A stretch of 64,000 nucleotides of DNA from an uncultured Candidatus Saccharibacteria bacterium. GTDB lineage: Bacteria; Patescibacteriota; Minisyncoccia; Phycocordibacterales; Zambryskibacteraceae. Where the stretch lies: NCBI GenBank assembly GCA_964642835.1, contig CAZXQA010000001.1, forward strand, positions 132,314 to 196,313, in the 5' to 3' direction. Made by a program: the position numbers and the translations under genes. Shown here one piece after another: positions 3,802 to 34,823 of this stretch (its first letter is position 1; every line of letters starts with the position of its first letter). Below the pieces are notes generated by a model, which worked only from the letters and a program-made list of their open reading frames with translations, was not told where the DNA came from and ran no database searches.

Positions 3802-3813
3802 CGAGTAGAAGAG

Positions 3814-9230: not shown

Positions 9231-9248
9231 ACGTTTATGGAGAAAGAT

Positions 9249-9375: not shown

Positions 9376-9461
9376 GCCCAGAAGCGAGCAACATTTTGCT
9401 CGCGCCAGGGATTCGAAAGGATTTTCGTTATTGTGCGAAGCGAAATCGAAAATCACCCGCG

Positions 9462-9575
9462 ACGGTAGTCGAGAATCCCTGTCGGGCAGCCAAGTCGTGC
9501 GACGCACGAGACGCGTCAAAACAACAATATTTTAGGTCTGCATAGAGCGCACCCGTTTAGGACAGGGAAACCTGG
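9462..9575 (+). repeat. tRNA-Gln-derived intergenic repeat, copy 1 (3'-end+CCA module, hairpin, 5'-half-like module)
   Basis: TCGAGAATCCCTGTCGGGCAGCCAAGTCGTGCGACGCACGAGACGCGTCAAAACAACAATATTTTAGGTCTGCATAGAGCGCACCCGTTTAGGACAGGG. The first 17 nt equal the tRNA-Gln 3' end plus CCA. The last part matches the tRNA-Gln D-arm/anticodon stem (TAGGACAG) with the D-loop deleted. Confidence 0.7.
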
Positions 9576-9707: not shown

Positions 9708-11132
9708 ATGCAATCTAAAACTCCCATCAAAAGACCGGTTATTCTCTCATGCCGGCACCTAAAAAAGACATTTAACACCGTAGATGTTCTGAAAGACATT
9801 ACGTTTTCAATTCGCCAAGGCGAAAAGATTGGTGTTGTTGGACCAAACGGCTCAGGAAAGAGTACGCTTTTTGCGATGCTCGCCAATCTGATTGAAAAAG
9901 ATTCTGGACTCATTACATATGGTAAGGGAATAAATGTGGCTTACTTACCCCAAATCCATGAGCAGGAGGAATTAAGTGGTGGAGAAATGGCCAGGAAGGT
10001 ATTGAAGCCGATTATGGGTTCCGATGCAGATCTGTTTCTATTGGACGAACCAACTAATAACTTGGATGTGGATGGGTTAGAAATGGTTGAGAAATTCGTA
10101 AGAGAAAACTCCAGCGCTTTTCTAATCATTTCGCACGATCGTACATTTCTAGATCGTACCGTCTCCAAAATTATTGAGCTAGACCCATACTCCAAAACAG
10201 CCTACGTATATGAGGGTAATTATTCCTCATATATAGAAGAGAAAACAGCAAGAATTGAACGAGCCTGGCATAAATACAGCGACGCTCAAGAGAAGACTCA
10301 AAAACTTTCTAAAGAAGTTGACCAGAGACTTTCTTGGATGAAAAAGATTGAGCAAAAACGGCTCGATATCAAAAAGATTCCAAAGAACATAACTGAAAAG
10401 CCTCACGCTGCGGTTTTGCGTGACAAAGAAGCCAAGGCGGGCAGAAGGGCACGTCTCCTTAAGGATAGGCTTGAAGCTCATAAAGAAGAAGTTAAAGCAG
10501 AGATTGAAAAGCCTGCTCGCGAGCTTCCATTGAAAATTAACTTTGAACCAGTGCGAGGCAGTACCAAGGTTCTGAGTCTCACTAAAGTTGTAAAAAAGCT
10601 GGGTTCAAAAGTAATTGGACCAATCGATGTCTTTATCCAGTATGGGGATAGGGTTCACATAACAGGTAAAAATGGAGTTGGAAAAACAACACTTCTTAAG
10701 CTTATGTTAGGTGAAATGGTGCCAGATAAAGGAGAATTTGTTGTAGGGGAAAACGTTCGCACTGGGTATGTAGAACAATTGAAGGATAGAAATTCTCTAT
10801 CTCAAACAGCCTTAGAGCATTTCCTTGAAAAGACGAAACTCGATCAAACAAATGCTCGCAAAATTCTCAATCGTTTCCGTATTACAACGGAAGATATTGG
10901 TAAAAAAGTTGGCGAATTAAGTCCAGGAGAGTATTCAAGGTTGGTGATAAGCGAATTGGTTGCGATTCAGCCAAATTGCATCATTCTCGATGAACCAAGC
11001 AACCATCTTGATCTTGAGGTTCTGGAAGAGCTTGAAAAGGGGTTGGTAAATTTCCCAGGTACGTTGATTGTGGTGAGCCACGATAGATATTTTGTCGAGA
11101 AAATTAAACTCACCAGAGAAATTTCTCTGTAA
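9708..11132 (+). CDS. ABC-F family ATPase (tandem ABC domains, no TMD; EttA/Uup-like translation factor class)
   Basis: Two Walker A motifs (GPNGSGKST, GKNGVGKTT), two signature/Walker B sets, charged inter-domain linker. GGAG box 8 nt upstream of ATG 9708. Confidence 0.9.
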   Translation: MQSKTPIKRPVILSCRHLKKTFNTVDVLKDITFSIRQGEKIGVVGPNGSGKSTLFAMLANLIEKDSGLITYGKGINVAYLPQIHEQEELSGGEMARKVLKPIMGSDADLFLLDEPTNNLDVDGLEMVEKFVRENSSAFLIISHDRTFLDRTVSKIIELDPYSKTAYVYEGNYSSYIEEKTARIERAWHKYSDAQEKTQKLSKEVDQRLSWMKKIEQKRLDIKKIPKNITEKPHAAVLRDKEAKAGRRARLLKDRLEAHKEEVKAEIEKPARELPLKINFEPVRGSTKVLSLTKVVKKLGSKVIGPIDVFIQYGDRVHITGKNGVGKTTLLKLMLGEMVPDKGEFVVGENVRTGYVEQLKDRNSLSQTALEHFLEKTKLDQTNARKILNRFRITTEDIGKKVGELSPGEYSRLVISELVAIQPNCIILDEPSNHLDLEVLEELEKGLVNFPGTLIVVSHDRYFVEKIKLTREISL

Positions 11133-11352: not shown

Positions 11353-13800
11353 TCAATTATTTTGTGTTTGAGTTGTCGTGACGGATGCACTTGGTGCGAT
11401 ACGAAGAAAGAGAATTAGGAGCAGGCTGAATTCGAAAGCGCCAATGATCGGAGCGCTCCATGCGAGTCCTAAGAGGCCAAATGGGATACCAAGCCCGAAC
11501 AAGGCGAGGAATTTTGCCGTATGCGTGCTGATTTCACTGATGTAGAGCGTGCGGGTCTTTCCGAATGCGGTGAGCGCCGCCCGCAGAAGTCCGACCGGTG
11601 CAAAGGCGACACACATGAACATGATCTGAAAGTAAATAACGGATTCTGGATAGTTTGGAAAGAGGATGCTGTATACAAAAGGAGCGCACGCTATTCCGAA
11701 TATGACCATCGGTATCGTGAGAAGGAAAAGAGCCCCCGTTTTACGGAGTATCGAGCGCTTAAGTTCGGGGGTGTGTAGGTGCGTGCTTAGGTGCGGCAAC
11801 GTAATCGTGCCGATGGGGAGAAGCTGGAATACTTTCATGATTGGCGTTGCGGCGAATGTCTGGATGGCGGTGGCGGTAGGGCCAAGAAGCCACCATACAA
11901 AGATTTTATCGAGGTTTTCCGAAATGGTACGCAATATCTGCATGGCGGTAAGATGGAACCCGAGGGAAAGGGAAGAATCGCTCTCGGGACCGACTGCCTG
12001 CCGACGTACGGTCAGAAATACGAGTATCCCGACAATCGTTTGGACACCCAGGACCCCTGCGACAATAACGATAAGGTTGTTTGAAAGAAGAAGTATCGGG
12101 ATGCTCCCGAGCGCGAGCCCGACGAAATATATGACGGTTACGGATGCGCTCACTCCAAAGCGCTTTTTGCCCTGCCAATAGTTCATGGCAAAGACGCTGA
12201 AGGTGTCGGTGAGCGGTACAAACGGAGCGGAAACAACAAATGCCCAGCCAAGTGAAGAGTTTCCGCTAAGGAGAAACCATGCGCCGATGACCGAGGCGGC
12301 GAGCGTCCCGAGCATGCCCCATCGTAAGCGCGCCCGTAGCATCGGCCACACACTACCGTCATTGCCTTGGGCCACCGCGCGTACGAGCGCGTTGTTCATA
12401 CCGGGAAGCGTGGAGAGGCTGAGTATGCTAAGCGTGGCTATAAGATAGTTGTACGACCCAACCACTTCGCGCGGCACGCGGGCCGCCATCGTCGTCACTA
12501 CCGCGAGCGAAGCGAGCAAGGCTCCGAAACGGCCGATCGTAATGTAGAGCGCGTTGTGCGTCGATTCCTTTAGCGGCATGGCGTCGGGGGTGCGGAGGCG
12601 TTCGCGAGAGCCGCGTATGCCGAACATGGTTCGAAGGCGAATCGCATACTTTCGGGCGGCAAACTTTATAAATTGCCGCAGGTTAGAAACACCATATGTC
12701 TGCATGAGATATGCGACAAATCCGAGCGGGCTACGGTTTGTCTCATGTTTCCAGTATGCATACCAAAGAGTTGGTACGTTGCCGATAGGCGAATAGCGTT
12801 CCTCGTGTATGGTATTCGCGTAGTTTTCGTACGCTCGCCGCTCATTCCTTGAAAAGGGGACGGCTTCTAACTGTTCAAGAAACCAGGCGGGAATCGGCGC
12901 TTGCCAGCGCTCTTTGAGGTAGCGGGCGGCAAGGAAAACTTCAAGGCTGAATCCAAATCGCCGCGCCGATGCCGCTACCGCTTCCCAGTCGACTGGGAAG
13001 GCCTCCATAGCACGAAGTGCGTCTGCAACCCAACGTAGCGTACGCTGGCTGTTTCCTTCGGTGCCATGAATCATGAGATGGATAAGAAAATACTCATTCG
13101 AGAGCCGGAAGCACGGTATGCCGTCGATATCCATGCGTACAGCCGTTTGCCACAGAACTGTGCGAAGAGCTTCGGATGAAGGGGTTTTTAGAAGAAAAAG
13201 ATCGATAGTAGGCGTGTGGTGCGAAAGTGAGAAGATGTTCCAATGGACGTCAACTTCGAGATCACCAGGCCCTATGAAGAGCGTCTCCTTAATGACCTGG
13301 TAAATGCTCGAGACGGGATGGAGTGCGTCGGGCGCATAGGGGATACCATGATGAAAGCCATGTTGATGCAAGAGGGTTGTCATCTGGTATCCGTATTCCG
13401 GCGGTATGAGAATATCGGCATCGCCCAAAAAGCGTGAACCCCGGTCGCGATAGACTTCCAATAGGAGTGGTGTACCCTTTAGGACGAGAATGGGGATGTG
13501 GTGTTTGTCGCAGAGCGTGGCGATACTCTTGGTGATTGCAAGAATGCGTTGGTTGCGCACCCAGGCGCTACGGTATGCACCTTTGATACGATCGTAATAC
13601 TCGTCTTTTATACCCAAACGCTGCATGCGCAGATAGATGAGGGGTACAAGACGGAGATAAACGCCATCGATGCTCTCGAATGTATTGTGCTGAATCCAGA
13701 TCCGCCAAAGGCTCGGGAAATCGCTGTCGCGACATAAAACAAGTTCAAGAAAGGCTTCTTCGTCGAGTGTGGGAAAGCTGTCTGGGTATGGAAGAGGCAT
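11353..13800 (-). CDS. fusion protein: N-terminal uncharacterised nucleotidyltransferase (NTP_transf_5-like) + C-terminal Wzx-like polysaccharide flippase (about 12 TM helices)
   Basis: 815 aa. N-terminal half has LGDADILIPPEY (GDxD nucleotidyltransferase motif) and is soluble. C-terminal about 400 aa is polytopic with oligosaccharide-flippase-like helices. Confidence 0.6.
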   Translation of the reverse strand: MPLPYPDSFPTLDEEAFLELVLCRDSDFPSLWRIWIQHNTFESIDGVYLRLVPLIYLRMQRLGIKDEYYDRIKGAYRSAWVRNQRILAITKSIATLCDKHHIPILVLKGTPLLLEVYRDRGSRFLGDADILIPPEYGYQMTTLLHQHGFHHGIPYAPDALHPVSSIYQVIKETLFIGPGDLEVDVHWNIFSLSHHTPTIDLFLLKTPSSEALRTVLWQTAVRMDIDGIPCFRLSNEYFLIHLMIHGTEGNSQRTLRWVADALRAMEAFPVDWEAVAASARRFGFSLEVFLAARYLKERWQAPIPAWFLEQLEAVPFSRNERRAYENYANTIHEERYSPIGNVPTLWYAYWKHETNRSPLGFVAYLMQTYGVSNLRQFIKFAARKYAIRLRTMFGIRGSRERLRTPDAMPLKESTHNALYITIGRFGALLASLAVVTTMAARVPREVVGSYNYLIATLSILSLSTLPGMNNALVRAVAQGNDGSVWPMLRARLRWGMLGTLAASVIGAWFLLSGNSSLGWAFVVSAPFVPLTDTFSVFAMNYWQGKKRFGVSASVTVIYFVGLALGSIPILLLSNNLIVIVAGVLGVQTIVGILVFLTVRRQAVGPESDSSLSLGFHLTAMQILRTISENLDKIFVWWLLGPTATAIQTFAATPIMKVFQLLPIGTITLPHLSTHLHTPELKRSILRKTGALFLLTIPMVIFGIACAPFVYSILFPNYPESVIYFQIMFMCVAFAPVGLLRAALTAFGKTRTLYISEISTHTAKFLALFGLGIPFGLLGLAWSAPIIGAFEFSLLLILFLRIAPSASVTTTQTQNN

Positions 13801-13807: not shown

Positions 13808-14497
13808 TTAACGCATTGAACGTCTACGATCGATACTGGCCTTCATGATCTTGAGATAGTCGCTATGTCCGGCGAGGTTGAGAGTTGTATTAGTTTGGTG
13901 AACACGCCGTAGATAGAGTACTTCTTGAAGCATGATATGTTTCAGACCAAATTCTTCCGCTCGCATTGTCCAGTCAATAAATTCTCCGATACGATACGCC
14001 TCGTTGAAAGGTCCGACTTTCTTCATGCTCGCTGCCCGTCCAAGAAATGTGGCGGATATTCTGTTGGCAAGAGGCCCCTCAAGAAAGCGTTTTGTGGTGC
14101 GAACAGAATCAGGCAATTCGGGGCTGATAAAATTTTCTAACATACAGTGAACAATGTCGAGATCTGGATGTGTATCGAACATTTCCATTTGTCGTGCAAG
14201 CTTATTTGGTTTCCAAATATCATCAGCGTCGGCGAGCGCGATGAAGGAGCCTCGTGCGATGCGGATGCCCGAGTTGCGTCCAGCGGCAATGCCGCGATTG
14301 GCACGGTGAGATATTACGGTGATTCGGTCGCCGAACGTCTTGAGGGTGGCAGAGGTGGCGTCTGTCGAACAGTCGTCTACCACGATAAGCTCAAGAGGGG
14401 TATATGTTTGGTCAAGAATGCTGTTAATGCTTTCGGCAAGATACGGTTCGCCATTGAGTACTGTCATAACTACGGAGACAAGAGGATTCATACTCAT
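13808..14497 (-). CDS. glycosyltransferase family 2
   Basis: 229 aa. VSVVMTVLNGEPYLAESINSILDQTY, DDCSTDAT, ADADD (DxD). 4-nt overlap with the upstream kinase gene. Confidence 0.85.
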   Translation of the reverse strand: MSMNPLVSVVMTVLNGEPYLAESINSILDQTYTPLELIVVDDCSTDATSATLKTFGDRITVISHRANRGIAAGRNSGIRIARGSFIALADADDIWKPNKLARQMEMFDTHPDLDIVHCMLENFISPELPDSVRTTKRFLEGPLANRISATFLGRAASMKKVGPFNEAYRIGEFIDWTMRAEEFGLKHIMLQEVLYLRRVHQTNTTLNLAGHSDYLKIMKASIDRRRSMR

Positions 14498-15624
14498 AGA
14501 GAGGGAGCGAGAGACGCCGGCCGGGCGTCAAGAAAGGCGCGTATCGTTTCGGGTACGGCGCGCACGTGAGGGCCCAACTCAAGAATAAAGCACGGTGTCT
14601 TCCCAATGATATCGGCGAGAGAAGAGGTCTTCGATGAGGGTGCGAGCGGAAGTTGAAAAAGGGTAGTCGGCACCAGGGCAAGCATGGCTTCAAGTTTTGT
14701 GGCGGGGATAATGCGCGTATGCGAGGCGATGCGCGGAATGAAAATCGCCGCAAGCGGCGCGCACTCCTTTAATTGCCGGGGAAATAGTTCGGATAGAAAC
14801 ACGATCGCTTTTTCAGCCTCTTTTTTCCCGACGCCCTCCGCATTCCAGATAGAGGTGCGAAATTCGGGGAAGTTGGGGAGTTGCTCGGGCTTTATTTTGA
14901 CGGAATTATAAAGGCTGTGCACGCTATTTTGCTCAATGAGAACATAATCGTCCCCGATATAATCCATACCCGACATGAGGCAGGAGAGCGCGGTGGTTGA
15001 TTTTCCCGAGCCGCCCACGGCAGATAACAGCACGGCTCCATTCTCTGTGCCCACCGCGGCTCCATGAACAAAGTGAATGTCGTGATGGGAGAAAAACCAA
15101 TGCAATATAGTGCGCAACGGCGCCGCATGCATCCACTCGGGCACGGCGGCGGCATCATGAATCCAAAAGTAGGCTGTCTGCGAGGCGTAATCGTAGAGAT
15201 ATAGTATGTCCTCGCCGCGCACGAATACGCCCCGGAACGTCGGGTCTGACTCCTTTGCTTTGTCGGGAGTTTCCAGGTTGCCGTATGCAGGATCAGACCA
15301 AGGGCCGCCTAGCGGTACGCCGGAGGAAACACTATCGAGCAGATGAATGGTAAGATCGGGTTCGGCATTACTTGCGGTGGGCAGGTGCGCGAAGGCGCGC
15401 GCGGCGAATTCTGCAAAACGCGGGGCATGCGCACGTATTCGGACGGTTTTACCGGCGATGCGGCGTGTCGTATCGATCGAAGATTTTGCCGAAATGACGG
15501 CTTCAAATGCGGGGACAAATACTTCATCGAGATAATCTCGATGAATAGTGGCGTAATGTTGCATTACGACGGTGTGTGCGTTCTGAGCCATGCGGTAAGT
15601 TTTTGTTTTTCCGACTCGCACCAA
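14494..15624 (-). CDS. HPr kinase/phosphorylase-related P-loop kinase (HprK-related kinase family)
   Basis: 376 aa. GAVLLSAVGGSGKSTTAL Walker A of the HprK C-terminal-domain type, upstream HGAAV block. Lacks the HprK N-terminal domain. Confidence 0.65.
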   Translation of the reverse strand: MVRVGKTKTYRMAQNAHTVVMQHYATIHRDYLDEVFVPAFEAVISAKSSIDTTRRIAGKTVRIRAHAPRFAEFAARAFAHLPTASNAEPDLTIHLLDSVSSGVPLGGPWSDPAYGNLETPDKAKESDPTFRGVFVRGEDILYLYDYASQTAYFWIHDAAAVPEWMHAAPLRTILHWFFSHHDIHFVHGAAVGTENGAVLLSAVGGSGKSTTALSCLMSGMDYIGDDYVLIEQNSVHSLYNSVKIKPEQLPNFPEFRTSIWNAEGVGKKEAEKAIVFLSELFPRQLKECAPLAAIFIPRIASHTRIIPATKLEAMLALVPTTLFQLPLAPSSKTSSLADIIGKTPCFILELGPHVRAVPETIRAFLDARPASLAPSL

Positions 15625-16041: not shown

Positions 16042-17292
16042 TTATGGCCGTATTATCTCTCCTCTCTTCTCCGCGTTGCGCACCAAGTTCGTCGCAGAGA
16101 CAGCGTCGCGCACGGCCTGAGAGGAATGATGCTTCCGCACCCACGAAGCGGCCTCGGCGCAAAGCCGCTCGGCCAACCCCGGATCATTTAAAAGGTTGAC
16201 GCAGGCCTCAGCAAACGCTTCGGGTTCATCGGCGATGAGAAGGTGGCGATTGTGCTCAACTCCCAGTCCTTCTGCGCCGATGGCGGTTGAAACCACCGGG
16301 CGGCCAAGCCCGAACGCTTCAAGAATTTTTACGCGGGTGCCGCCTCCGGATCGAATCGGTACAAGGCAGATAGAAGCATTTTGATACACCGGCATGAGGT
16401 CCGCGCGGTTGCGGTCAAAAATGATACCGGGAGTGCCATCGGGGCGAAAGGACGAAGGCGGATTAGCGCCTACCAAATGAAGTTGCAAGGCGCCCTCGTG
16501 CAGCGCTTGTATGCGCGGCCATATTTTATCTACCAGAAACTTTGCGCCGTCGAGATTGGGGAAGTAGTCCATTTTGCCGACGAACATGAGGGTGCGCGGC
16601 AGACTGTCGGGCGGAGGAGGCAGGCGCGAGGCCTGATGCGTTGCATTAGGAATCGCTACGACGCGCTCCGGTTCGGTAAGCGCGCTTATGTTCTCCTTTT
16701 CGCGCGTAGAGGCTACGTAGATTTCTTGGAACTGAGGAAGTAAAACGCGTTCCATCATGCGAAAGAGATGAAGCCCACGCTGCAGTTCCTCGACCTTTTC
16801 GGGCGGAAGACCCGGAGTTTTGAGAAACCGCAGCTGCCGTTTCGAAAGCATCTCATCTAAATCCAGATACACCGGCTGGAGACGGTCGAGTATCAGACGG
16901 ACAAAAACGGCGGTGTCGAATGCAAAGAGTAACGTAGCGTCGATGGCTTTTTCGGCATGAAGCTTTGCAATGAGCTCGGGGGCTTCTTGGGTGGTCGCAT
17001 ATACGGATGAGGGCGAGGCTCCGGCGGAAGCTCGGCGCTCATCGAGCGTATCACTCATATGCAGGTAGGTTATTGAGGCGAAACGAGCAAGGAGCGGCGC
17101 ATCAGGCTGTCCCGATAGAGCATCCGCGTAGATAATTACTACGTGTATGTTAAAGGAATCAGCCAGCGCGTCGAGGATGTGAGCGGCGCGTTGCTGACTG
17201 CCCGTGCCGAGGCGAGTGGGTTGATCGCGCCATATCCATAAAAGATTCGGGCGAGAATCTGCAGATTTTGAGGTAGCGTACATTGCGACCAT
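16042..17292 (-). CDS. glycosyltransferase family 1 (GT-B, GT4-like)
   Basis: 416 aa. C-terminal GGGTRVKILEAFGLGRPVVSTAIGAEGL, the E-x7-E nucleotide-sugar binding region. Confidence 0.85.
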   Translation of the reverse strand: MVAMYATSKSADSRPNLLWIWRDQPTRLGTGSQQRAAHILDALADSFNIHVVIIYADALSGQPDAPLLARFASITYLHMSDTLDERRASAGASPSSVYATTQEAPELIAKLHAEKAIDATLLFAFDTAVFVRLILDRLQPVYLDLDEMLSKRQLRFLKTPGLPPEKVEELQRGLHLFRMMERVLLPQFQEIYVASTREKENISALTEPERVVAIPNATHQASRLPPPPDSLPRTLMFVGKMDYFPNLDGAKFLVDKIWPRIQALHEGALQLHLVGANPPSSFRPDGTPGIIFDRNRADLMPVYQNASICLVPIRSGGGTRVKILEAFGLGRPVVSTAIGAEGLGVEHNRHLLIADEPEAFAEACVNLLNDPGLAERLCAEAASWVRKHHSSQAVRDAVSATNLVRNAEKRGEIIRP

Positions 17293-20337: not shown

Positions 20338-22062
20338 ATGCAAGTCTTAGGAATAAATACCGGACACGACGCGAGTGTCGCCTTGGTACGAGATGGGATT
20401 TTTGTGGAGGTGGTCAATGAGGAACGCTTTAGTCGTTATAAAAATCACCACGGATTTCCGAATCGTTCGGTTGCCTACATAAAGGAAAAATATCTGATAG
20501 ACTCCTTTGACCGAGTCGTGCTTGTATCTGCTAACGGTCGATATGACACGCCGCTTTTTGGTGATAAGGAAAATGAGGTTTTGCGCAAGCGTACCGGCGA
20601 ACCGCTTTTTATCAAGGCGGCATTCTTTAAATTAGGATTGCTCCAGGTGTGGCGTAATGTTCGGTATTGGTTCCATATCCGTTTCAAACAACCCGCGCTC
20701 AGAAAAAAAATACACGATCTCGTTCGCAAGCATTTCCCGACAGAAGAGATAATACATCTGGATCATCATTTAGCTCATGCTTGGTCAGCACTCGCATTCA
20801 CTGAACAACCGGAAGAGGCCCTCATAATCACTCTCGATGGCGAGGGTGATGGTTTGTGCGGATCGGTAAATTGCTACAAGAACAATCGATTGTCTCGGGA
20901 AATAGCTATCCCCGCCGGAGTCGGTATCGGAACATTGTATGGCAAGGTGACCGAATTTATGGGAATGCGACGCAATGAGCACGAGTTTAAGGTAATGGGC
21001 CTGGCTCCTTACGCTAAGTCGGATGCCGCTGAGCCTTTTCTTATACATTTGCGATCTCTTATCAGCTTTTCGCCGAAATCGCTCTCTTTTTCAACGCCTT
21101 TCCATATGCAGTATGCCAAATATTTTTTTATGTCAAAAACCTTCTCAAACTATCGTTTCGAAGCCTTAGCCAGCGGGATTCAGAAATTTACTGAAGAATT
21201 AGTTACGCAATTTTTAAAGGCGATATTGGACGAGTATCCATCAAAACATGTTTGTGTCGGCGGCGGTGTCTTCATGAATATTAAACTCAATCAGGTTATA
21301 CAGAGGAATTTTCCCGATATAGATCTTACCTTTACACCATCATGCGGAGATGATTCGCTATCAATCGGCGCCGCGAAGTACGGATATGACACTGCCGTTA
21401 ACGGACGTACGAAGCCGATTGAAACTCTATATTTGGGTTCTGAATACACGGATGAAGAAATCGGAGCCACAATCAATGAGTTTTCTGATAGAGATTTTAA
21501 AATCCGACACTTTTCAACGGACGGTGAGATCGAGGACGAGATATCGCGTCTTCTGGCTAAAGGTCATATCGTTGCGCGTTTTGCCGGCCGAATGGAGTGG
21601 GGTTCGCGAGCCCTCGGAAATCGCTCTATTCTGGCAAACCCGTCCGACCCACGGATTATTAGGAAAATTAATGAAGCCATCAAAAATCGTGATTTTTGGA
21701 TGCCGTTCGCGCCTACGATTCTCGATGAGGTAGTGGATGAATATTTGATAAATCCCAAAGCCTCACCGTTTATGATGGTTGGATTTGAAACGACCCCTCT
21801 GGCACAGGAACAAATACCTGCCGCTTTGCATCAGTATGATTTCAGTTGCAGGCCGCAAATTCTCAAGAAGAACGACAATCCGGAATTCCATCACCTGATC
21901 TCGCTCTTTAAGAAAAGAACGGGTATCGGCGCAGTGCTTAACACCAGCTTTAATTTACACGGCAGTCCGATCGTTGAGGGCCCGAAGACTGCTATTACCA
22001 CATTCACGCAATGCGGCCTCACACATCTTGCTATTGGAAACTATCTTTTAGTTAAAGTTTAG
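20338..22062 (+). CDS. carbamoyltransferase (NodU/CmcH family; Kae1/HypF-like ASKHA fold)
   Basis: 574 aa. LGINTGHDASVAL N-terminus and HHLAHA motif typical of NodU/CmcH O-carbamoyltransferases. Confidence 0.8.
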   Translation: MQVLGINTGHDASVALVRDGIFVEVVNEERFSRYKNHHGFPNRSVAYIKEKYLIDSFDRVVLVSANGRYDTPLFGDKENEVLRKRTGEPLFIKAAFFKLGLLQVWRNVRYWFHIRFKQPALRKKIHDLVRKHFPTEEIIHLDHHLAHAWSALAFTEQPEEALIITLDGEGDGLCGSVNCYKNNRLSREIAIPAGVGIGTLYGKVTEFMGMRRNEHEFKVMGLAPYAKSDAAEPFLIHLRSLISFSPKSLSFSTPFHMQYAKYFFMSKTFSNYRFEALASGIQKFTEELVTQFLKAILDEYPSKHVCVGGGVFMNIKLNQVIQRNFPDIDLTFTPSCGDDSLSIGAAKYGYDTAVNGRTKPIETLYLGSEYTDEEIGATINEFSDRDFKIRHFSTDGEIEDEISRLLAKGHIVARFAGRMEWGSRALGNRSILANPSDPRIIRKINEAIKNRDFWMPFAPTILDEVVDEYLINPKASPFMMVGFETTPLAQEQIPAALHQYDFSCRPQILKKNDNPEFHHLISLFKKRTGIGAVLNTSFNLHGSPIVEGPKTAITTFTQCGLTHLAIGNYLLVKV

Positions 22063-22750
22063 ATTCCTGGTGAGTAAATGGGGTATTTATTTCTGATACA
22101 TCCGGGAAAAGCTCTTTTGCGCGCTCGTAATCTTCCGGAGTGTCAATCTCGATCCACTTGGCATCCGAAACGATTGGCGCGACACGAGGTCGCAATTTAC
22201 CTTCGCCGACTCCGACTCCCCACCATTTGAGATGGTCTAGATCCTCGTAGATCGCTTGTAATGCGTCGGAGGTGACTAGAGTACAGACCTCGGCCCCGTA
22301 ACCGTGCTCTTTTGAATACTCAACAATTCTGCCTTCCTTAACTACCACCTTCATCGCTTCCGGATCATCGAAATCAGGGTCGATCAAGGAAACGGATTCA
22401 TGGTATTGATTGTAATTGTCTAACAGGGGCAATAATGCTCCAGGCGAAAGCACCAGGTCGGCATCTATAATTAAAGTATCGGCATATCCGATTGCATCAA
22501 GCGCGATTTTTAAGCCTTGAGCATTATCACCATGCTGATAATCTGGATTTGGAATAAGGGTAACTTCCGTAGATAAACTCGCAAACAGTTCGGACTGATG
22601 GCCTATGACAACATAGATCTGGTTGATGCCGTAACCATGAAGTTGTTTGAGCATGCGCCCAATAATCGACTCCCCTTGGATTTTCAAAAAAGGCTTGGAT
22701 ATCCCATTAAATCGCGAAGCCACCCCAGCCGCCATGATCAGTGCTCTCAT
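22052..22750 (-). CDS. sugar-/alcohol-phosphate nucleotidyltransferase (LicC/MobA-like NTP_transferase fold)
   Basis: 232 aa. LIMAAGVASRF (GxGxR nucleotide-binding loop). Confidence 0.7.
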   Translation of the reverse strand: MRALIMAAGVASRFNGISKPFLKIQGESIIGRMLKQLHGYGINQIYVVIGHQSELFASLSTEVTLIPNPDYQHGDNAQGLKIALDAIGYADTLIIDADLVLSPGALLPLLDNYNQYHESVSLIDPDFDDPEAMKVVVKEGRIVEYSKEHGYGAEVCTLVTSDALQAIYEDLDHLKWWGVGVGEGKLRPRVAPIVSDAKWIEIDTPEDYERAKELFPDVSEINTPFTHQESKL

Positions 22751-22790: not shown

Positions 22791-24125
22791 ATGAGAATTC
22801 AGGCTGGATTAACGGATGCTACGCCTTTTCTACCCCCGTTAGATATAAGGAGTTTTGATGAGTTGGCATCAAATCAAGTTGCCGCCACTCTAGACAAGGC
22901 GGCAGGATTACAGAAATCCGGCATCATTCACATTTCCGCCTCCAGATTGAGAGAGGATAAGGAGACTGGAAAGAAGTATATCGGTGGAGGTGGGCTGGCC
23001 GAAACTCTACGGGACCAGATCCCCCTAGAATCTTCATGCGGATTAAGAAGTTCGCTCTATTTACCGAATGCTCAATCGTCTTACTATCCAATTTGTCAAA
23101 AAATCTTTTCGCAGATTATCGGAGAGACAGACCGCTGTTTGTTACCCTCTGACATCGAAGAATACACGATGACCTGCACAGATCTCCGGCCGCAATTACA
23201 AAAAACGCTTATGCAAGAGCGCCCGGAGATCGTAATAATGCACGACTTTGAATTTTTACCACTGATCAGCGCCGTACCCGATTCTTTAATAAAGATCCTT
23301 CACTGGCATGTTGATTTTCCATCCAACCCTTCTGACTGTATTCCTGTCTTAATGCCATATTTAAAACAATTCGACGTGGCAATAGCTGCCGATAAAGAAA
23401 TTGCCGATAAATTGGCGTCAGTAATCCCAAACACGCGAGTCATATCGCCGAGCGTAAACCCGCAAACGATAAAACTTTCGACACCCACATCATCAAATAG
23501 AAAGAAAATTCTGGAGAAGTTGAGCATCGATTACAATCGTCCCATACTTTCTCAAATCGGAAGAATCTCAAACCAGAAAGACCCCGTATCGGTCGTGAAT
23601 ATCTTCAAGCGTGTGCGCGAAAGATTTCCGGGAACACAACTTGTCTTGGCGGGAATGTTTAATTTACCCGGTGAGGATTTCACGCTTACTTTACAAGAGT
23701 TGAGGAAACAAATCGGTCAAGACCGGGATATACACCTAATTACAAGCCCTTTAGAGATCAGCCCTTTTTCCAATGATGAATTCCTTGCCACCCTCTACTC
23801 TTCGAGTGACATTCTGATAAATATCGGCAAAAACGAAGGATTCGGATTAGTGATGACAGAAGCTATGTGGCATGGCAATATAGTGGTCGCGATGGATTCG
23901 CCTGGCGCCCGCACACAGATTGATTCTGGTCATAATGGCTTTATTATTTCCGACTTGACCCAAGCGGTTGAAAAAATCAGTGATATATTGCGGGAGCCCG
24001 ATAAATTCAAGGGTATAAAAGAGCGCGCGAAACAATCAGTGCGGGACAGGTTCTTAATCACGAATTATATGGAAGATATGATAGATTTGTACAAATCACT
24101 GCAAAAAAACCATGAGTTCAGATAG
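22791..24125 (+). CDS. glycosyltransferase family 1 (GT-B)
   Basis: 444 aa. C-terminal NEGFGLVMTEAMWHGNIVVAMDSPGARTQI donor-binding region. True start may be downstream of 22791. Confidence 0.7.
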   Translation: MRIQAGLTDATPFLPPLDIRSFDELASNQVAATLDKAAGLQKSGIIHISASRLREDKETGKKYIGGGGLAETLRDQIPLESSCGLRSSLYLPNAQSSYYPICQKIFSQIIGETDRCLLPSDIEEYTMTCTDLRPQLQKTLMQERPEIVIMHDFEFLPLISAVPDSLIKILHWHVDFPSNPSDCIPVLMPYLKQFDVAIAADKEIADKLASVIPNTRVISPSVNPQTIKLSTPTSSNRKKILEKLSIDYNRPILSQIGRISNQKDPVSVVNIFKRVRERFPGTQLVLAGMFNLPGEDFTLTLQELRKQIGQDRDIHLITSPLEISPFSNDEFLATLYSSSDILINIGKNEGFGLVMTEAMWHGNIVVAMDSPGARTQIDSGHNGFIISDLTQAVEKISDILREPDKFKGIKERAKQSVRDRFLITNYMEDMIDLYKSLQKNHEFR

Positions 24126-25752
24126 GATAAGCAAGCTTTCCAAACCGCTCTCGGAACATTCAAATCTTACAAGGTTGTTTTCTGATAATCTTTTGGATGA
24201 AGCCAATCTGTTTCTTGCCTCAGTAAATGATGCAGTGTTGAAGGGGCAAGCCAGAATTACGGGTGATGGCGTATCTGAAAGCCACAATGAGCTACTGAAA
24301 CGATTCTCTTTCTTACCAGAAGATACGACAAAAGACCCGTCTTCCGTTTTTCGTAATATCACGAACCATTTATTCTCCAGAGCTCCTCTTTGGAGAAGCC
24401 CCAGTCTCCAATACAATGTAGGAGCTCCGGTAAATGCCGTATCGTCCATACTCTATGGGACGGCAATGGACTTAAATATATTTAATATCAATGATGGACT
24501 GTCCGGAAATGCAATTGTGGCAGAGCATGCTGTCATCCGAATTCTTGCAGAATTGGCCGGGCTCGATCCAAATTCAGTGGCGGGATTCTTCACGTTCGGG
24601 GGCACTGCAACCAATCTATATGCCCTTAAACTGGCTCTGCAAAAAAACATACCTGGCTTGCGTACCGGCGGTCTATCGACCAAAGTAAAAGTCGCCCTGA
24701 CTGCCGACGCACATTTTTCTCATTTCCGCATTCTTGACTGGTTGAGTATTGGAACTGACAACGCATTAGTTTTAGCCGCGCAGAATGATCACACCACCGA
24801 TGTGCTGCCATCTCGCGCGGAACTTGAAGAGGCGCTATCTAACGGTTTCCGCATACCTCTAATAATCCTCAATGGGGGCACCACCTATGACCATGCCATA
24901 GATAATATCGCTGACTTTGTGCAACTTCGGAACGATCTGGTTGAGAAGTACAAATTAGATTACGTGCCACATATACACGCAGACTCGGTAATTGGATGGC
25001 CGTGGTTATTCTTCCGTACTTACGATTTCGAAAAAAACCCGCTTGAAATCGAGGAGCACACACTCAAGCTGATCAATCAGCAGGTCGGATATATCGAGCA
25101 AATTCGCCTGGCTGACAGTTGGGGTGTCGATTTCCACAAAGGAGTCGGCTCCTGTCCCATACCGGCAAGCGTAATTATGATAAACGATCGCCGCGATCTT
25201 CAATCACTCACCACAAAAAAACTCGGACTGCATCAATTAGCCAGTGAATACAGTACCTTTTCACCTGTAGATTTTACGCTAGAGTCATCGCGGCCGGCCG
25301 GCGCACCATTAGCGGCCTTGGGTGCACTTCATGCTCTCGGAACCAAAGGCTTCCAAACACATCTTGCCATTCTGATACAGTCGAGCCAGTTGTTTAGAGA
25401 GCTTATAGCATCACTTGGTCGCGAGGATATTCAAATATTAAACCCCGACTCAAGGGGTTATGTCACAATGCTACGACTGCACCCAGCAATTAATACACAA
25501 GAAAAGGACAACACTTACTTAAAATCCTTCTTTGAATTTGATAAAGAAAATCGGATGAAGCAAGGCGATGGTGTTGAGTATTCGTATACATCTCAATACA
25601 CAGTCGACGCAAGTGGAAAAAATTCGGATGCAATTAAGTTTTATCCGACTTCTCCTTTGATAACATCCCAGCATGTCGAAAAGGCGGTTGAAACTCTCGT
25701 AAAACAAAAAGAACTTTTTGATCAGACCTTCTTTAATTACCAACCTTGTTAG
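24112..25752 (+). CDS. PLP-dependent group II decarboxylase (MfnA/serine-decarboxylase-like)
   Basis: 546 aa. FTFGGTATNLYALKLA, HIHADSVIGW (H-x-D-A-A-x-G type), DFHKGVGSCPIPASV (PLP-Lys loop, cf. DPHKMG..P.P). Confidence 0.75.
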   Translation: MSSDRISKLSKPLSEHSNLTRLFSDNLLDEANLFLASVNDAVLKGQARITGDGVSESHNELLKRFSFLPEDTTKDPSSVFRNITNHLFSRAPLWRSPSLQYNVGAPVNAVSSILYGTAMDLNIFNINDGLSGNAIVAEHAVIRILAELAGLDPNSVAGFFTFGGTATNLYALKLALQKNIPGLRTGGLSTKVKVALTADAHFSHFRILDWLSIGTDNALVLAAQNDHTTDVLPSRAELEEALSNGFRIPLIILNGGTTYDHAIDNIADFVQLRNDLVEKYKLDYVPHIHADSVIGWPWLFFRTYDFEKNPLEIEEHTLKLINQQVGYIEQIRLADSWGVDFHKGVGSCPIPASVIMINDRRDLQSLTTKKLGLHQLASEYSTFSPVDFTLESSRPAGAPLAALGALHALGTKGFQTHLAILIQSSQLFRELIASLGREDIQILNPDSRGYVTMLRLHPAINTQEKDNTYLKSFFEFDKENRMKQGDGVEYSYTSQYTVDASGKNSDAIKFYPTSPLITSQHVEKAVETLVKQKELFDQTFFNYQPC

Positions 25753-30372: not shown

Positions 30373-30768
30373 ATGAATAAAATCGCTTTATCAATTATTA
30401 CTATCGGACTCATTGTTGGAATTGGTGTTATTTTTGTAGGATCGAAGGATGGCGACAAAACTGCATTAACACAGTCTATGCAAAATGTTGAAGTAAAAGA
30501 TGGGATTCAATACATAACTATCGACGCTAAAGGTGGATATTCTCCAAAACTCTCTAATGCAAAGGCTGACATTCCTACCAAGTTGATCGTGAAAACAAAC
30601 GGAACTTATGACTGCTCTTCTTCACTTGTAATCAAGTCATTGGGATATCAAAAGATATTAGCGCAAACTGGAGAAGAGATGATTGATGTTGGAACACCTA
30701 AAGCAGGAGAACCACTTCAAGGAGTTTGTGGTATGGGGATGTATAGCTTCGTAGTTAATTTTAGCTAA
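30373..30768 (+). CDS. membrane-anchored cupredoxin-like copper-binding protein
   Basis: 131 aa. N-terminal TM, C-terminal C…GVCGMGMYSF Cys/Met cluster as in Cupredoxin_1-type proteins of cop operons. Confidence 0.45.
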   Translation: MNKIALSIITIGLIVGIGVIFVGSKDGDKTALTQSMQNVEVKDGIQYITIDAKGGYSPKLSNAKADIPTKLIVKTNGTYDCSSSLVIKSLGYQKILAQTGEEMIDVGTPKAGEPLQGVCGMGMYSFVVNFS

Positions 30769-32050
30769 TGCATATATTTTTTTCTTTTAGCAGTATTTTG
30801 CTTTTAAAACAGGTAAGCAGTTCTCGTTTCTCTTCAACTGTTCCATCTTTCAGTATGAATTTAGCGTAATCTCTAATATCCACGTCTTTAACTTGTATTT
30901 GCTGTTTAATACCTAAGATAGATTGCTGGAACTTCTTTATGCGCTCGACCTCATATTTTATTTTCTCTCTCATGCCTATTTCATTAAGATTTATATGAGT
31001 AAGGATCTTCACAAACTGTTGTATTAGGTCAGTTTCCTTGATATAACCACATTTGCAATCCTTGTCTTTAGATTTCGTGCATCCATAATAAACATGTCTG
31101 TTCACTGATCCGTCTTTCAGCTTCTTAAACTTTTCATCAGCACATATTCCAGAGCCACACAAAGCGCATGTCATTATTTTGGTGAACGCAAATTCTTTTG
31201 GTTCCTGTACCCGTAATATCTGACTTTTAATTTGCTGTTGAACTTGGTCAAATAACTCTTTTGAAATTATTGCTTCATGAACTCCTTTGTACCAAAGCCC
31301 ACTCTTTCTAGGATATTCAAATGAACCGTAATAGAAGTCGTTTTGTAAAAGAAGATAGATGTTGCTCAAAGTCAGACCCTTGTTTCCGTTAGGTGTTTTA
31401 AAGTTCAACTCGAACTTGAGCCAGTTATAAATTTTGCGACCGCTCCATTTCTCATAGGCAACTTTCTCAAACATCTTCCTTATGATTGGCCCTCGTTCTG
31501 GATCTATGTAAACATGACCTTTGCGGTCGACTCGCTTTTCATTGAGATACCCCATCGGAGCGGGGGCGGGCCATAAACCCATCTCGCAACGAGTCCTCAG
31601 CCCACGCTTCACGTTGATGCTCTTGTTGTCATTCTCAAGCTTTGCCTGAGAACAGAGAATCATTAATAGGAACTTCTCGCTTGGAGTATTCGTAAACGTC
31701 TGACCATAAGTGCGTATCTGAACCAGAAGTTTCTGATCCATTAAGTCCACTAGAGAACCTAGATCTCCCGCATTTCTACTCAACCTATCTGGATGCCAAA
31801 CAATGATTCCATTAAATCGCTGTCTTCTTAAGTCTTCCAAGATTTCTTTGAAGACTGGTCTTTGTCCTGAATCTTTTGCAGAGTGCGCCTCTCTTCGTAT
31901 GTCTATAACATCAAGATTTTCTCTTTCGGCTATGGCTAGCATTTCCTTAACTTGGGATTCGATTGAAAGGGCTTGCTTCTCGTCTTGTTCAGTGGATTTA
32001 CGAGCATAGAGAACGTACTTAACTCTTGGGGCTGGTTGTGTGGTTTCCAT
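30761..32050 (-). CDS. large serine recombinase (integrase/resolvase family)
   Basis: 429 aa. N-terminal resolvase catalytic domain (YVLYARKSTEQDEKQALSIESQ, catalytic Ser), recombinase domain, C-terminal Cys-rich zinc ribbon (CALCG…CTKSKDKDCKC). Confidence 0.9.
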   Translation of the reverse strand: METTQPAPRVKYVLYARKSTEQDEKQALSIESQVKEMLAIAERENLDVIDIRREAHSAKDSGQRPVFKEILEDLRRQRFNGIIVWHPDRLSRNAGDLGSLVDLMDQKLLVQIRTYGQTFTNTPSEKFLLMILCSQAKLENDNKSINVKRGLRTRCEMGLWPAPAPMGYLNEKRVDRKGHVYIDPERGPIIRKMFEKVAYEKWSGRKIYNWLKFELNFKTPNGNKGLTLSNIYLLLQNDFYYGSFEYPRKSGLWYKGVHEAIISKELFDQVQQQIKSQILRVQEPKEFAFTKIMTCALCGSGICADEKFKKLKDGSVNRHVYYGCTKSKDKDCKCGYIKETDLIQQFVKILTHINLNEIGMREKIKYEVERIKKFQQSILGIKQQIQVKDVDIRDYAKFILKDGTVEEKRELLTCFKSKILLKEKNICIS

Positions 32051-32365: not shown

Positions 32366-32668
32366 ATGGAATTTTGGATCTGGGCACTACTAATTATCGC
32401 TCTGTACTTTGCGCCAACAATTACTGCTTACGATAAGAAAAAGAAGAATACTGGGGCAATATTTGCCCTCAACTTCTTTCTTGGTTGGACTTTGGTAGGT
32501 TGGGTGGTCGCGTTAGTTTGGGCTACTACCGTTGAGAAAGAAGAAAGGGTAGAGGTTGTAAGGGGATCATCAAGTATTGATGATTTACACAAGTTAGCAG
32601 AACTAAAAGAGAAAGGACTTATCAGCGAAGAAGAGTTCAACAAAAAGAAGCAACAAGTGCTTGGTTAG
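32366..32668 (+). CDS. superinfection immunity protein (Imm_superinfect) fused to SHOCT domain
   Basis: 100 aa. YFAPTITAYDKKKKNTGAIFALNFFLGWTLVGWVVALVWA matches the phage superinfection-immunity family. C-terminal SIDDLHKLAELKEKGLISEEEFNKKK is a SHOCT motif. Confidence 0.75.
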   Translation: MEFWIWALLIIALYFAPTITAYDKKKKNTGAIFALNFFLGWTLVGWVVALVWATTVEKEERVEVVRGSSSIDDLHKLAELKEKGLISEEEFNKKKQQVLG

Positions 32669-33216
32669 TTTTTCTGGGGCTTGTTTCTTTTCTCCTCATA
32701 TTCTTTCTTCCATTCCTCAAAGAGTTCTCTTGCCCTCTTCTCTCTATCGTGATCCATAACCTTTTTCCACTTGTCCATCCATTTTTGTGCCTGATTTGCA
32801 GCTTCTTCGTTTCTTATGCGATTTTTTTCTGTGATCGTATATTTTATTTCCTCTTCAATCTGGCGTTTCTTTACTCCTTCCAAGGTGGAGCGGAAGTGAG
32901 AGATCAGATCATCAGAATCAACCTTAAAGACGTATGGCCTTCTGAAATCAGGGTGCCTGTGACTCAACCAATACTTTGTGTACATAGGATCCTTTTTCTT
33001 GATGCCATCAAGAACATTACTTACGGCCACATCACTCACTAACCCAGTGCCAAGAGACAAGGCCTCGTTAACCTGGGAGAGAAATTCTTTATCTTCTTTC
33101 ATCCAGCGATAGAAGGTATTTCTTGAGACACCCACCTTTTCGCAAGCTCCCAGAATAAGGCCTGTTTTCTCAAGCTCCTCTATAAGTCTATTCACTAGTG
33201 CCTTTGTCTTTTTCAT
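32665..33216 (-). CDS. HTH-domain protein, possible phage terminase small subunit
   Basis: 183 aa. N-terminal ACEKVGVSRNTFYRWMKEDKEF homeodomain-like HTH, highly charged C-terminal coiled region. No large terminase subunit nearby. Confidence 0.35.
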   Translation of the reverse strand: MKKTKALVNRLIEELEKTGLILGACEKVGVSRNTFYRWMKEDKEFLSQVNEALSLGTGLVSDVAVSNVLDGIKKKDPMYTKYWLSHRHPDFRRPYVFKVDSDDLISHFRSTLEGVKKRQIEEEIKYTITEKNRIRNEEAANQAQKWMDKWKKVMDHDREKRARELFEEWKKEYEEKRNKPQKN

Positions 33217-34474
33217 AGAGGGCTTTTTCTCCAGTTAATTTTTCCCATCTCCGCACAATCAGGTCGCAGAACTTTGGTTCCAGTTCACAACCATATACTC
33301 GTCGTTTAAGGATCTCTCCCGCAATCAAAGTGCTGCCAGATCCCAAGAAGCTGTCTAAGATGATGTCATTAGGCCTTGTACAGCGTTTAATAGCCTTCTC
33401 ATGGAGTTCTGGTGGCTTTGAGGTGGCGTGTTCGTATTCTTTGGCACCAAGGCGTTTAACTGCCCAGATATCGCCGATTTCATCGAGCATGTCGTTGCCG
33501 CTGGTTACTTCCTTGTTCATGACCTCATTGAGATCTTGTCTCAAATCAGAAAGGAATGGAGATCCGCGAGTGCCGTAAGTGCACGGTTCATAGCATTTGT
33601 TGAAAGCGGAAGTTGGGGTGGGGTTGTGTCCGTTCTTAATCCAGAGACAAACTCTCTTGTTTGCGATACCAAGCTCCTGATACAGGGTTTGCATGAGCCA
33701 GATATAACGCTGGTCAGACCAGTAGAAGATATGAAGATCGTTCTTAGAGACTGACAAGGCATTCTCAAGAGACTGCCTGATGAGATTTTTATAATCCCCC
33801 TCTTTTTGATTGTCGTTTACTTTGCCTCCGTAGCCTTTCTTCTTGCTTATGCCTTTGTCGTAGTCGATGCCGATGTTGTAGATCGGATCGGAGTAGATCA
33901 TGGATGCTTTATCTTTCCCTAAGAGTTTCTTAAGGTTTTCTTTATCAGTTGAATCTCCACAGAGAACTCGGTGCTTACCGAGTATGATAAGGTCGCCTAA
34001 CTTTGTTGTAGGCTCTTTAATATTCTTAAGTTCCTTCTCAACGTCGAAGTCTTCTTCTGCAACTTCCTTTTCTCTATCGAAGATGTTGGCGAGCTCAAGT
34101 CCATCAAAGCCTGCGAATTCGAGGGTATCGAAATCGAAGGATTTAAGGAGTTCAAAGTCCCAATCACCGCCGAGCTTGTTTGAGGCAATCAGGTATTCTT
34201 TCGATTCTTCCACTGTGAGCTTGCGATTGGGGACACGGACGTCGATTAATTCTTCTCCACGCCCAAGAAGCTGAAGAGCTTTAATGCGCTGATGTCCGGC
34301 AAGGATAGTGCCATCAGTATCAACCGCAGGAATCTCTACAAGATTGTATTTCTTGAGACTTCTTTTAAGATCCGACATCTGTTTGTCGGTAATTGTGCGA
34401 GGATTTACCTCTTGGGGAACAAGGTCGTTAACACGGTAACAATCTGTACGCCATTCTAACTTTAAGTTTTTCAT
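33188..34474 (-). CDS. ParB-like nuclease domain fused to DNA N6-adenine/N4-cytosine methyltransferase (beta class)
   Basis: Start taken at MKNLKLEW (ATG 34474). ParB/Srx motif LAGHQRIKAL. MTase motif IV SDPIYNIG (DPPY-like) precedes motif I ILDSFLGSGSTLIAGE (beta-class order). Typical phage/plasmid orphan methylase. Confidence 0.85.
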   Translation of the reverse strand: MKNLKLEWRTDCYRVNDLVPQEVNPRTITDKQMSDLKRSLKKYNLVEIPAVDTDGTILAGHQRIKALQLLGRGEELIDVRVPNRKLTVEESKEYLIASNKLGGDWDFELLKSFDFDTLEFAGFDGLELANIFDREKEVAEEDFDVEKELKNIKEPTTKLGDLIILGKHRVLCGDSTDKENLKKLLGKDKASMIYSDPIYNIGIDYDKGISKKKGYGGKVNDNQKEGDYKNLIRQSLENALSVSKNDLHIFYWSDQRYIWLMQTLYQELGIANKRVCLWIKNGHNPTPTSAFNKCYEPCTYGTRGSPFLSDLRQDLNEVMNKEVTSGNDMLDEIGDIWAVKRLGAKEYEHATSKPPELHEKAIKRCTRPNDIILDSFLGSGSTLIAGEILKRRVYGCELEPKFCDLIVRRWEKLTGEKALYEKDKGTSE

Positions 34475-34823
34475 GACTTTAAAACCTATTTTGTTAATGC
34501 GTACAAACAAAAACACCAACTTTTTGAATTGGTGTTTTTGCGGGATAACGAAAGCAATAACAACAACCAAAAAGGCTGTAACTATTACTTCCGTCAAAAA
34601 GAATCGTACCTAGACGCACTTTCGTGCCGGTAATTAACGTTCTACGGCTTTTGACTTATAACCGAATCGATGCCGGAGCAGACCCACTTTCCGTGTAAGG
34701 GTCTCAAAGAAGACAATTGATGTTTTGTGAATGTACTACTGTAATTATAAGACATGTATTTACTAGTTAGTAACTAGAGTTGTTGATAAAGAAGGTGTAT
34801 GCTAATCCCAAGAAAAACTTAAT

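Follow-up and report, generated by a model that had tools for sequence, protein, structure and literature searches.

A nucleotidyltransferase fused to a Wzx-type flippase in a putative surface-glycan operon of a Patescibacteria bacterium

The 64,000-nucleotide DNA stretch analysed in this study, hereafter the window (contig CAZXQA010000001.1 of assembly GCA_964642835.1, positions 132,314 to 196,313), comes from an uncultured Candidatus Saccharibacteria bacterium. On its minus strand lies an operon of five genes, which encode in order a GT4 glycosyltransferase, a PqqD-like protein of the RRE type (RiPP recognition element; RiPP, a peptide made by ribosomes and modified after translation), an HprK-like kinase, a GT2 glycosyltransferase and a protein of 815 amino acids (aa) in which a nucleotidyltransferase is joined to a Wzx-type flippase (Table 1). 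The operon is flanked by housekeeping genes (ABC-F, NUDIX, MetRS, DprA, SerRS, Dus and DnaX). The fusion protein, translated from a single ATG-initiated open reading frame (ORF), is the main subject of this work.

Table 1 Features of the fusion gene and its operon in the window. MOP, multidrug/oligosaccharidyl-lipid/polysaccharide.
Feature	Coordinates	Strand	Basis
Whole fusion gene, PF14907 nucleotidyltransferase and Wzx-type flippase	11353..13800	-	ORF, Pfam, full-length homologs
Nucleotidyltransferase half, aa 1-392, Pol-beta-type core and C-terminal helical region ending in a basic helix (aa 374-392)	12625..13800	-	
Catalytic motif LGDADILIPPEY, aa 125-136; D127 and D129 predicted metal-binding carboxylates	13393..13428	-	Translation, conservation
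Linker, aa 393-409, FGIRGSRERLRTPDAMP, basic, weakly conserved, low model confidence	12574..12624	-	Alignment, model
Wzx-type (MOP superfamily) 12-helix flippase half, aa 410-800	11401..12573	-	PF01943, Foldseek, helices, positive-inside pattern
GT2 glycosyltransferase, 229 aa; 7-nt gap upstream of the fusion gene	13808..14497	-	Pfam
HprK-like P-loop kinase	14494..15624	-	Hpr_kinase_C E 4e-4 (below cut-off), Walker A GGSGKST
PqqD-like (RRE-type) protein, 121 aa	15638..16003	-	PF05402 23.0 bits vs 23.4
GT4 glycosyltransferase, 416 aa, first operon gene	16042..17292	-	Glyco_trans_1_4 E 2e-23

The initial annotation had read this ORF as a nucleotidyltransferase and a flippase in one protein, and each half, checked separately against its family, passes the Pfam gathering cut-off. 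In the Pfam scan, aa 50-298 match PF14907 (NTP_transf_5; E 9.5e-35, 120.8 bits versus a cut-off of 31.2) over profile positions 16-247 of 249, and aa 415-668 match PF01943 (Polysacc_synt; E 6.7e-10, 39.3 bits versus 28.2). No model matched the fusion protein in the NCBIfam scan. An AlphaFold2 prediction that drew on ten homologs (mean pLDDT 80.9) consists of a soluble N-terminal domain followed by about 12 long helices at aa 410-800. The halves are connected by some 17 residues, modelled with low confidence at aa 390-405 and probably disordered. When the junction was checked, neither a stop codon nor an evident signal for internal initiation turned up there, and no Shine-Dalgarno-like sequence precedes the internal ATG.

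The fusion is conserved. A word-indexed search of 5.8 billion proteins yielded ten clusters at 90% identity that carry both domains (796-826 aa, 43-100% identity, query coverage 98-100%); with P0011 (790 aa) as an eleventh, the identities range from 36 to 100%. These clusters stem from independent assemblies and sources (NCBI, ENA, JGI and Logan) and keep one reading frame while their nucleotides have diverged, and the exact window protein was found on 3 contigs. The nearest relatives are from Patescibacteria metagenome-assembled genomes (MAGs). Residues in both halves are invariant in the alignment, including G109, D127, D129, D184 and H186 of the nucleotidyltransferase, and the linker is variable. 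In rough neighbour-joining trees, one built for each half, the fusions all fall into a single clade that also includes the standalone proteins P0012-P0015, and both trees return the same subgroups (P0001-6; P0007/8/10; P0009/11), suggesting that the halves have co-evolved and that fusion or fission has occurred more than once. The protein is thus a real two-part inner-membrane protein of a Patescibacteria (Candidate Phyla Radiation, CPR) bacterium.

The fusion is also rare, although both halves are abundant as separate proteins of about 400 aa. When 1.84 billion representatives at 50% identity were searched exhaustively with a profile, only P0010 and P0011 among the best 150 matches represent the fusion of nucleotidyltransferase and flippase. 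The remaining matches are standalone N-terminal halves of about 390-410 aa (up to 496 bits), standalone C-terminal halves of about 405-425 aa (up to 504 bits) and two fusions of the flippase family to other enzymes (P0077 and P0114, described below). As the lowest score among the best 150 was 232 bits, a fusion would appear in this set even if each of its halves matched only moderately. A profile search with the N-terminal family returned only standalone proteins of about 390 aa, with no fusion to a lasso B2 protein among the best 120 matches. Sequence searches of the PDB with the full protein and with the N-terminal family gave no relatives for either half.

The C-terminal half is predicted to be a Wzx-type flippase of the PST (polysaccharide transporter) family of the MOP superfamily, moving polyprenyl-pyrophosphate glycans across the membrane. 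In the Foldseek search of the PDB, the top matches are the WzxE lipid III flippase structures of 2025 (9g95/9g9n; E 5e-8 to 1e-6), which occupy ranks 1-4 and 7 with TM-scores, normalised to target length, of 0.70-0.76; the lead is modest, since MurJ reaches 0.46-0.63 and MATE proteins 0.52-0.66 on the same scale. The loops predicted to face inward are rich in lysine and arginine (9, 3, 2 and 2 residues versus 0-2 in outside loops), which corresponds to an N-in topology. The PF01943 match, the helix count and the fold ranking agree with the earlier view of this half as a flippase-like domain with about 12 transmembrane (TM) segments. The homologs P0011, P0012 and P0114 match PF01943 with 49-86 bits. 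Members of the same flippase family are found standalone beside GT2 genes, and others are fused N-terminally to a GT4 glycosyltransferase (P0077, 784 aa) or to a NAD-dependent epimerase (P0114, 751 aa). Identity as a MATE multidrug exporter was rejected, as there is no MatE Pfam match at E<=0.01 and MATE structures rank below WzxE.

The N-terminal half adopts a Pol-beta-type fold with a conserved glycine motif and DxD carboxylates, and its PF14907 domain begins with a bundle of helices and is extended by further helices at the C-terminal end. The GDxD motif noted earlier lies within this domain with its DxD intact, and D127 and D129 are unchanged in 10 fusions and in 39 members of the N-terminal family. 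In the comparison list of nucleotidyltransferase structures, the figures, which carry no label, are 15.2 for MenT1, 13.2 for a fungal nucleotidyltransferase-like protein, 12.7 for ANT(2'') 4xje, 11.3 for TglT, 11.2 for LnuA and 8.2 for FKRP. Since Lys/Arg residues cluster in the predicted cytoplasmic loops, nine of them directly before TM1, this half lies in the cytoplasm. A role of the helix preceding the junction as a membrane anchor is not supported; it is basic in all family members, and its hydrophobic moment is at background (median 0.23 versus 0.22).

The other operon products are more remote from characterized families. Genes for an HprK-like kinase, a PqqD/RRE-like protein and a nucleotidyltransferase are clustered here, with the kinase and the PqqD-like protein below curated cut-offs. 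The kinase scores 31 bits against TIGR04352, the kinase model of the HPr-rel-A system (NCBIfam cut-off 200), and its matches to PDB sequences are marginal and confined to HprK (E 0.2-0.7). Its longest ORF has 376 aa from a TTG, whereas the gene as called in public records has 365 aa and begins with the ATG at 15591; translation probably starts there, and the exact 376-aa sequence is absent from the protein collection searched. Kinase orthologs carry a weak or faint precomputed tag, PF27840 'ScmC', a family absent from the Pfam scans run here and for which the literature search gave nothing relevant. The PqqD-like protein reaches 25.6 bits against Lasso_PqqD_Bac (cut-off 80), and its orthologs at two other loci (L001 and L020) bear precomputed PqqD matches. 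The GT4 protein shows sub-threshold similarity to TIGR03087 stp1. In scans of the operon against shuffled controls, fewer promoter-like sites were counted than the mean of the shuffles, and terminator-like sites (10 versus 6.6 ± 1.9) showed no clear excess.

To place the fusion in its genomic context, homologous loci were compared. The PqqD-like/(GT2)/kinase/GT2/nucleotidyltransferase cassette recurs with an unfused nucleotidyltransferase in several lineages, namely at a Saccharibacteria locus (L006) and another CPR locus (L017), in a 'Gammaproteobacteria' MAG (L007) and in a Smithella MAG (L020), where the cassette gene order is identical to that of the window. Looser versions are present at L009, from an Actinomycetes MAG, and at L019, from a genome of 3.8 Mb, and the metagenome scan contributed 3 further loci. 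In every cassette locus, a GT2 gene adjoins the nucleotidyltransferase gene. The Actinomycetes cassette (L009, 8202-16269) has two PF14907 paralogs (9809-10882 and 11792-13051) as well as an ABC exporter; at a distance of 1.2 kb lies a gene for a protein-arginine deiminase. In the 3.8-Mb genome (L019, 1904-4203), an 84-aa PqqD gene is followed by ORFs of 64 and 175 aa, and the 64-aa product is a possible peptide substrate.

The two halves occur fused with the cassette in the window and in a Nomurabacteria MAG (L001), and as separate genes at two related loci. At L010, genes for a PqqD-like protein, a GT2, a kinase, a second GT2 and a standalone PF14907 nucleotidyltransferase (405 aa) are followed by two sulfotransferase genes on the other strand, a standalone Polysacc_synt gene (413 aa) and Wzy_C, with 1.7 kb between nucleotidyltransferase and flippase. 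At L022, the cassette is followed by a complete nucleotidyltransferase ORF (3571-4782) and an ORF for the flippase that has an ATG of its own (4755-5957); the two overlap by 28 nt in different frames, so that one indel would interconvert the split and fused forms. The fusion probably arose from two genes neighbouring in related CPR surface-glycan loci. Further genes at the Nomurabacteria locus encode Bac_transf, Wzy_C, several GT2 proteins, an epimerase and a small cytidylyltransferase. It contains both an initiating transferase and Wzy_C, and L010 and L005 show Wzy_C only. The two sulfotransferase genes (L010, 6223-7960) recall sulfotransferase genes reported beside HprK and nucleotidyltransferase genes in Firmicutes lasso clusters (PMC8498205). 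Directly after the L001 fusion gene, at 12407-12844, lies the gene for the 145-aa CTP_transf_like cytidylyltransferase, a hint that this lineage may use a substituent activated with CDP.

Two types of transporter alternate with the cassette. A Wzx-type flippase accompanies it, fused, adjoining or nearby, at four independent loci (the window, L001, L022 and L010), and at five others (L007, L008, L009, L023 and L024) an orthologous ABC_membrane plus ABC_tran exporter (37-64% identity) lies inside the cassette. A fifth fusion locus, that of the P0011 lineage (L015/L016), has nucleotidyltransferase and flippase behind three GT2 genes, with no kinase or PqqD gene within about 4 kb upstream (L016) or 10 kb downstream (L015).

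Domain identities, folds, topology, conservation of the fusion, split forms and cassette make-up are established directly, and together they probably describe a bifunctional surface-glycan protein, whose Wzx half would flip a lipid-linked unit while its nucleotidyltransferase half and the kinase would carry out a cytoplasmic, phosphate-related tailoring or activation, the fusion serving co-expression and co-localisation. On the cytoplasmic side of the membrane, glycosyltransferases would assemble a short glycan on a carrier, polyprenyl phosphate; within this pathway, kinase and nucleotidyltransferase would perform a tailoring or activation step that depends on phosphate, after which the flippase half would carry the finished lipid-linked unit across the membrane, and the fusion would ensure 1:1 co-expression of both activities and their co-localisation at the membrane. 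By analogy, the nucleotidyltransferase could either cap a phosphate that the kinase has put in place, as reported for PsmK/PsmN, or provide the NDP (nucleoside diphosphate) activation of a substituent, following the logic of LicA/LicC/LicD. We infer the lipid-linked substrate, the nucleotidyltransferase chemistry and any kinetic coupling to flipping. ABC-type PglK/Wzk and Wzx are interchangeable in experiments for undecaprenyl-pyrophosphate-linked glycans (PMC2841628), and a shared lipid-linked substrate is therefore the simplest reading of the ABC/Wzx alternation, which fits a lipid-linked glycan better than a peptide. The fusion had been proposed as a handle on the substrate of the kinase/PqqD system, and it does offer an indirect one, as the nucleotidyltransferase is fixed in a cassette that carries a Wzx-type flippase or an orthologous ABC exporter. 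Several points weigh against the surface-glycan interpretation. A PqqD/RRE protein normally signals a peptide substrate, and ABC_membrane-type exporters also export peptides, such as lasso peptides. At three cassette loci (L006, L017 and L020) no transporter was found within the available DNA, and neither an initiating phosphoglycosyltransferase nor Wzy was found among the window ORFs scanned against Pfam. A 398-aa GT2 near the L019 PqqD gene carries a weak (E<=1e-3) precomputed PqqD match, PsmN is only a putative member of PF14907, and the inter-domain geometry of the fusion model is unreliable (pTM 0.54).

The rival explanations differ in how well they accommodate these data. An assembly or frameshift artefact joining two genes is barely conceivable. 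At L022 the two ORFs do adjoin in different frames at an A-rich stretch, where one indel would be enough, but eleven clusters from independent assemblies share the full-length architecture in the same single frame, the half-trees agree and the exact protein recurs on several contigs. Highly improbable, too, is a resistance module in which an ANT/Lnu-like nucleotidyltransferase inactivates an antibiotic and a fused MATE-like pump expels it: WzxE outranks MATE, the Pfam match is to Polysacc_synt and not MatE, the partnership with GT2, GT4, kinase and PqqD genes recurs, and the nucleotidyltransferase half, at about 390 aa with an extra helical domain, is unlike the resistance enzymes of 160-290 aa. 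It is more conceivable, if somewhat unlikely, that catalysis is coupled directly to flipping, with the nucleotidyltransferase modifying a lipid-linked unit while the flippase domain of the same protein holds it at its cytoplasmic vestibule and only modified units being flipped. Such coupling would suit the short linker, the agreement of the half-trees and a covalent fusion kept down to 36-49% identity, and it has a precedent in trans: in Streptococcus pneumoniae, LicA kinase, LicC cytidylyltransferase and LicD transferase decorate the lipid-linked teichoic-acid precursor in the cytoplasm, and TacF, a MOP flippase, acts as gatekeeper, taking precursors only after their phosphocholine decoration (PMC13385700). 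However, the genes are split at the sister loci L010 and L022, the P0011 lineage keeps the fusion without a kinase or PqqD gene nearby, and the model offers no reliable domain interface. The GT4 and epimerase fusions of the same flippase family indicate that fusion need not mean substrate channelling, and the one with a soluble NDP-sugar epimerase argues for co-expression instead. The coupling of modification to translocation suggested in the initial annotation is hypothetical.

A peptide-directed, RiPP-like pathway is unlikely, though the genes give it some footing. Here the PqqD-like protein would present a peptide or protein tail, the kinase would phosphorylate a serine, nucleotidyltransferase and GT2 would add sugar, and the MOP domain or ABC exporter would export the product. 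Chemistry of this kind is known from the pseudomycoidin lasso cluster, in which the HprK-like kinase PsmK places a phosphate on the C-terminal Ser and one or two hexoses are then attached to it, which requires PsmN, an 'uncharacterized NTP transferase' (PMC6993621). A D134A/D136A mutant of PsmN is inactive, and PsmN has been modelled on ANT(2'') 4xje/5cfs (PMC6993621; review PMC8498205). In Firmicutes lasso clusters, PqqD, HPr-kinase, 'uncharacterized nucleotidyltransferase' and GT2 genes co-occur (PMC7533575, PMC8498205). The ABC_membrane-type exporters within the cassette, the L019 GT2 with its PqqD match, the 64-aa ORF after the L019 PqqD gene and the deiminase gene near the L009 cassette point the same way. 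On the other hand, ten loci share no conserved small ORF: an all-against-all comparison of their 25-130-aa ORFs returned only shadow ORFs within large genes and the PqqD gene itself, a search that very short or divergent peptides could escape. In the CPR loci, the gaps flanking the PqqD gene are 24-64 nt and leave no room for a precursor ORF. Neither a lasso cyclase (Asn-synthase-like) nor a B2 protease was found in the operon, in the other scanned window ORFs or among the called genes of L001, L010, L017 and L020. Moreover, the transporter is Wzx-like, not MATE-like or a peptide exporter, and the sister loci hold Wzy_C and Bac_transf genes. Very unlikely, finally, is a hybrid of both routes by phosphodiester-forming conjugation, in which the kinase phosphorylates a serine of an RRE-held peptide or protein, the nucleotidyltransferase turns that phosphate into an NDP-ester, the activated phospho-peptide is linked to a sugar of a lipid-linked glycan or receives the sugar itself, and the fused Wzx domain or, in other lineages, the ABC exporter exports the product; if true, it would represent a previously unknown peptide-P-glycan surface structure, with a RiPP-like recognition module inside a Wzx/Wzy pathway.

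The surface-glycan interpretation gives a tentative setting to gene families with little functional information. PF14907 is a large family, and the sole functional data bearing on the nucleotidyltransferase are those for PsmN, from one lasso-peptide cluster; among the papers listed for PF14907, a single one, on phosphonates, names the family. The PqqD/HprK-like kinase/GT2/nucleotidyltransferase cassette spans several phyla, and no description of it was found in the searchable literature; nor did the literature search return a publication on the fusion or on the cassette combined with a flippase. Read as a Rosetta stone, and taken with the ABC/Wzx alternation, the fusion locates the cassette on the cytoplasmic side of the membrane, beside a translocation step that probably serves lipid-linked glycans, and the finding may be relevant to CPR surface glycans. 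Each domain is an ordinary member of a known Pfam family, and proteins of this architecture are already present, unannotated, in public databases. The fusion does not overturn current understanding.

Other features of the window were recorded as well. A second sugar-related cluster at 20338-25752 comprises a carbamoyltransferase gene (20338..22062), a MobA-like NTP_transf_3 gene (22052..22750, -), a GT4/TreT-like glycosyltransferase gene (22791..24125) and a 546-aa ORF (24112..25752) with no Pfam match and no TM segment. A copper/heavy-metal cluster at 27060-30768 encodes a P-type ATPase with HMA, a DsbD_2 membrane protein with HMA and a cupredoxin-like protein. An integrated mobile element or prophage probably occupies the region 30761-42400, where a gene for a serine recombinase (30761..32050, -) adjoins a LOOT RNA (32184-32301, +; 75.7 bits versus a cut-off of 46.4), beyond which lie a terminase-small-subunit-like ORF (32665..33216), a DNA methylase gene (33188..34597) and many small same-strand ORFs with a GC content of 0.36-0.40 versus about 0.50-0.56 in the flanks. 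GC content is mosaic over the whole window, at about 0.50-0.57 in 1-17 kb and 42-54 kb and about 0.36-0.45 in 18-42 kb and 54-64 kb. A 477-aa protein encoded at 42747-44180 combines Peptidase_M23 and GDSL lipase/acylhydrolase domains. Genes for tRNA are located at 9249-9319 and 53345-53415, and ORFs of 86-92 aa at 9093-9468 overlap the former and are probably spurious.

Compared with known systems, the fusion combines familiar parts in a different arrangement. The flippase half shares 12 helices, the N-in topology and PF01943 with WzxE of Escherichia coli (9g95/9g9n; PMC11706664), but the two are only 14-15% identical, and the window half is compact (about 400 aa) and, unlike WzxE, carries a cytoplasmic nucleotidyltransferase of about 390 aa at its N-terminus. 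P0077 and P0114 likewise link a cytoplasmic glycan-pathway enzyme of about 350 aa to a flippase of about 400 aa, though with other enzyme domains (GT4 and epimerase) and in a separate branch of the flippase tree. The nucleotidyltransferase half is 9-15% identical to the minimal nucleotidyltransferases of the ANT(2'')-Ia, LnuA and MenT type, to which the PF14907 half adds the N-terminal helical bundle and the C-terminal helical extension, and its context is glycan-related, unlike the toxin or resistance context of those enzymes.

At the level of the pathway, the half-transporter of ABC_membrane and ABC_tran domains that replaces the Wzx-type flippase in five cassette loci mirrors the exchange between PglK/Wzk and Wzx, although, unlike these glycan flippases, the cassette ABC exporters could equally be peptide exporters. 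The PsmK/PsmN cluster includes a lasso precursor, a cyclase and a B2 protease, none of which was found at the window locus, and an ABC transporter where the window has a Wzx-type one; the window kinase and PqqD genes are remote relatives of the PsmK/PsmN-type set, below the cut-offs. With LicA/LicC/LicD and TacF, the operon shares the logic of a kinase, a nucleotidyltransferase and a transferase working on a lipid-linked glycan and a MOP flippase, but all four enzyme families differ, which makes this an analogy and not a homology. The Lic and TacF proteins are separate polypeptides with a known substituent, phosphocholine, whereas in the window the nucleotidyltransferase and the flippase are fused.

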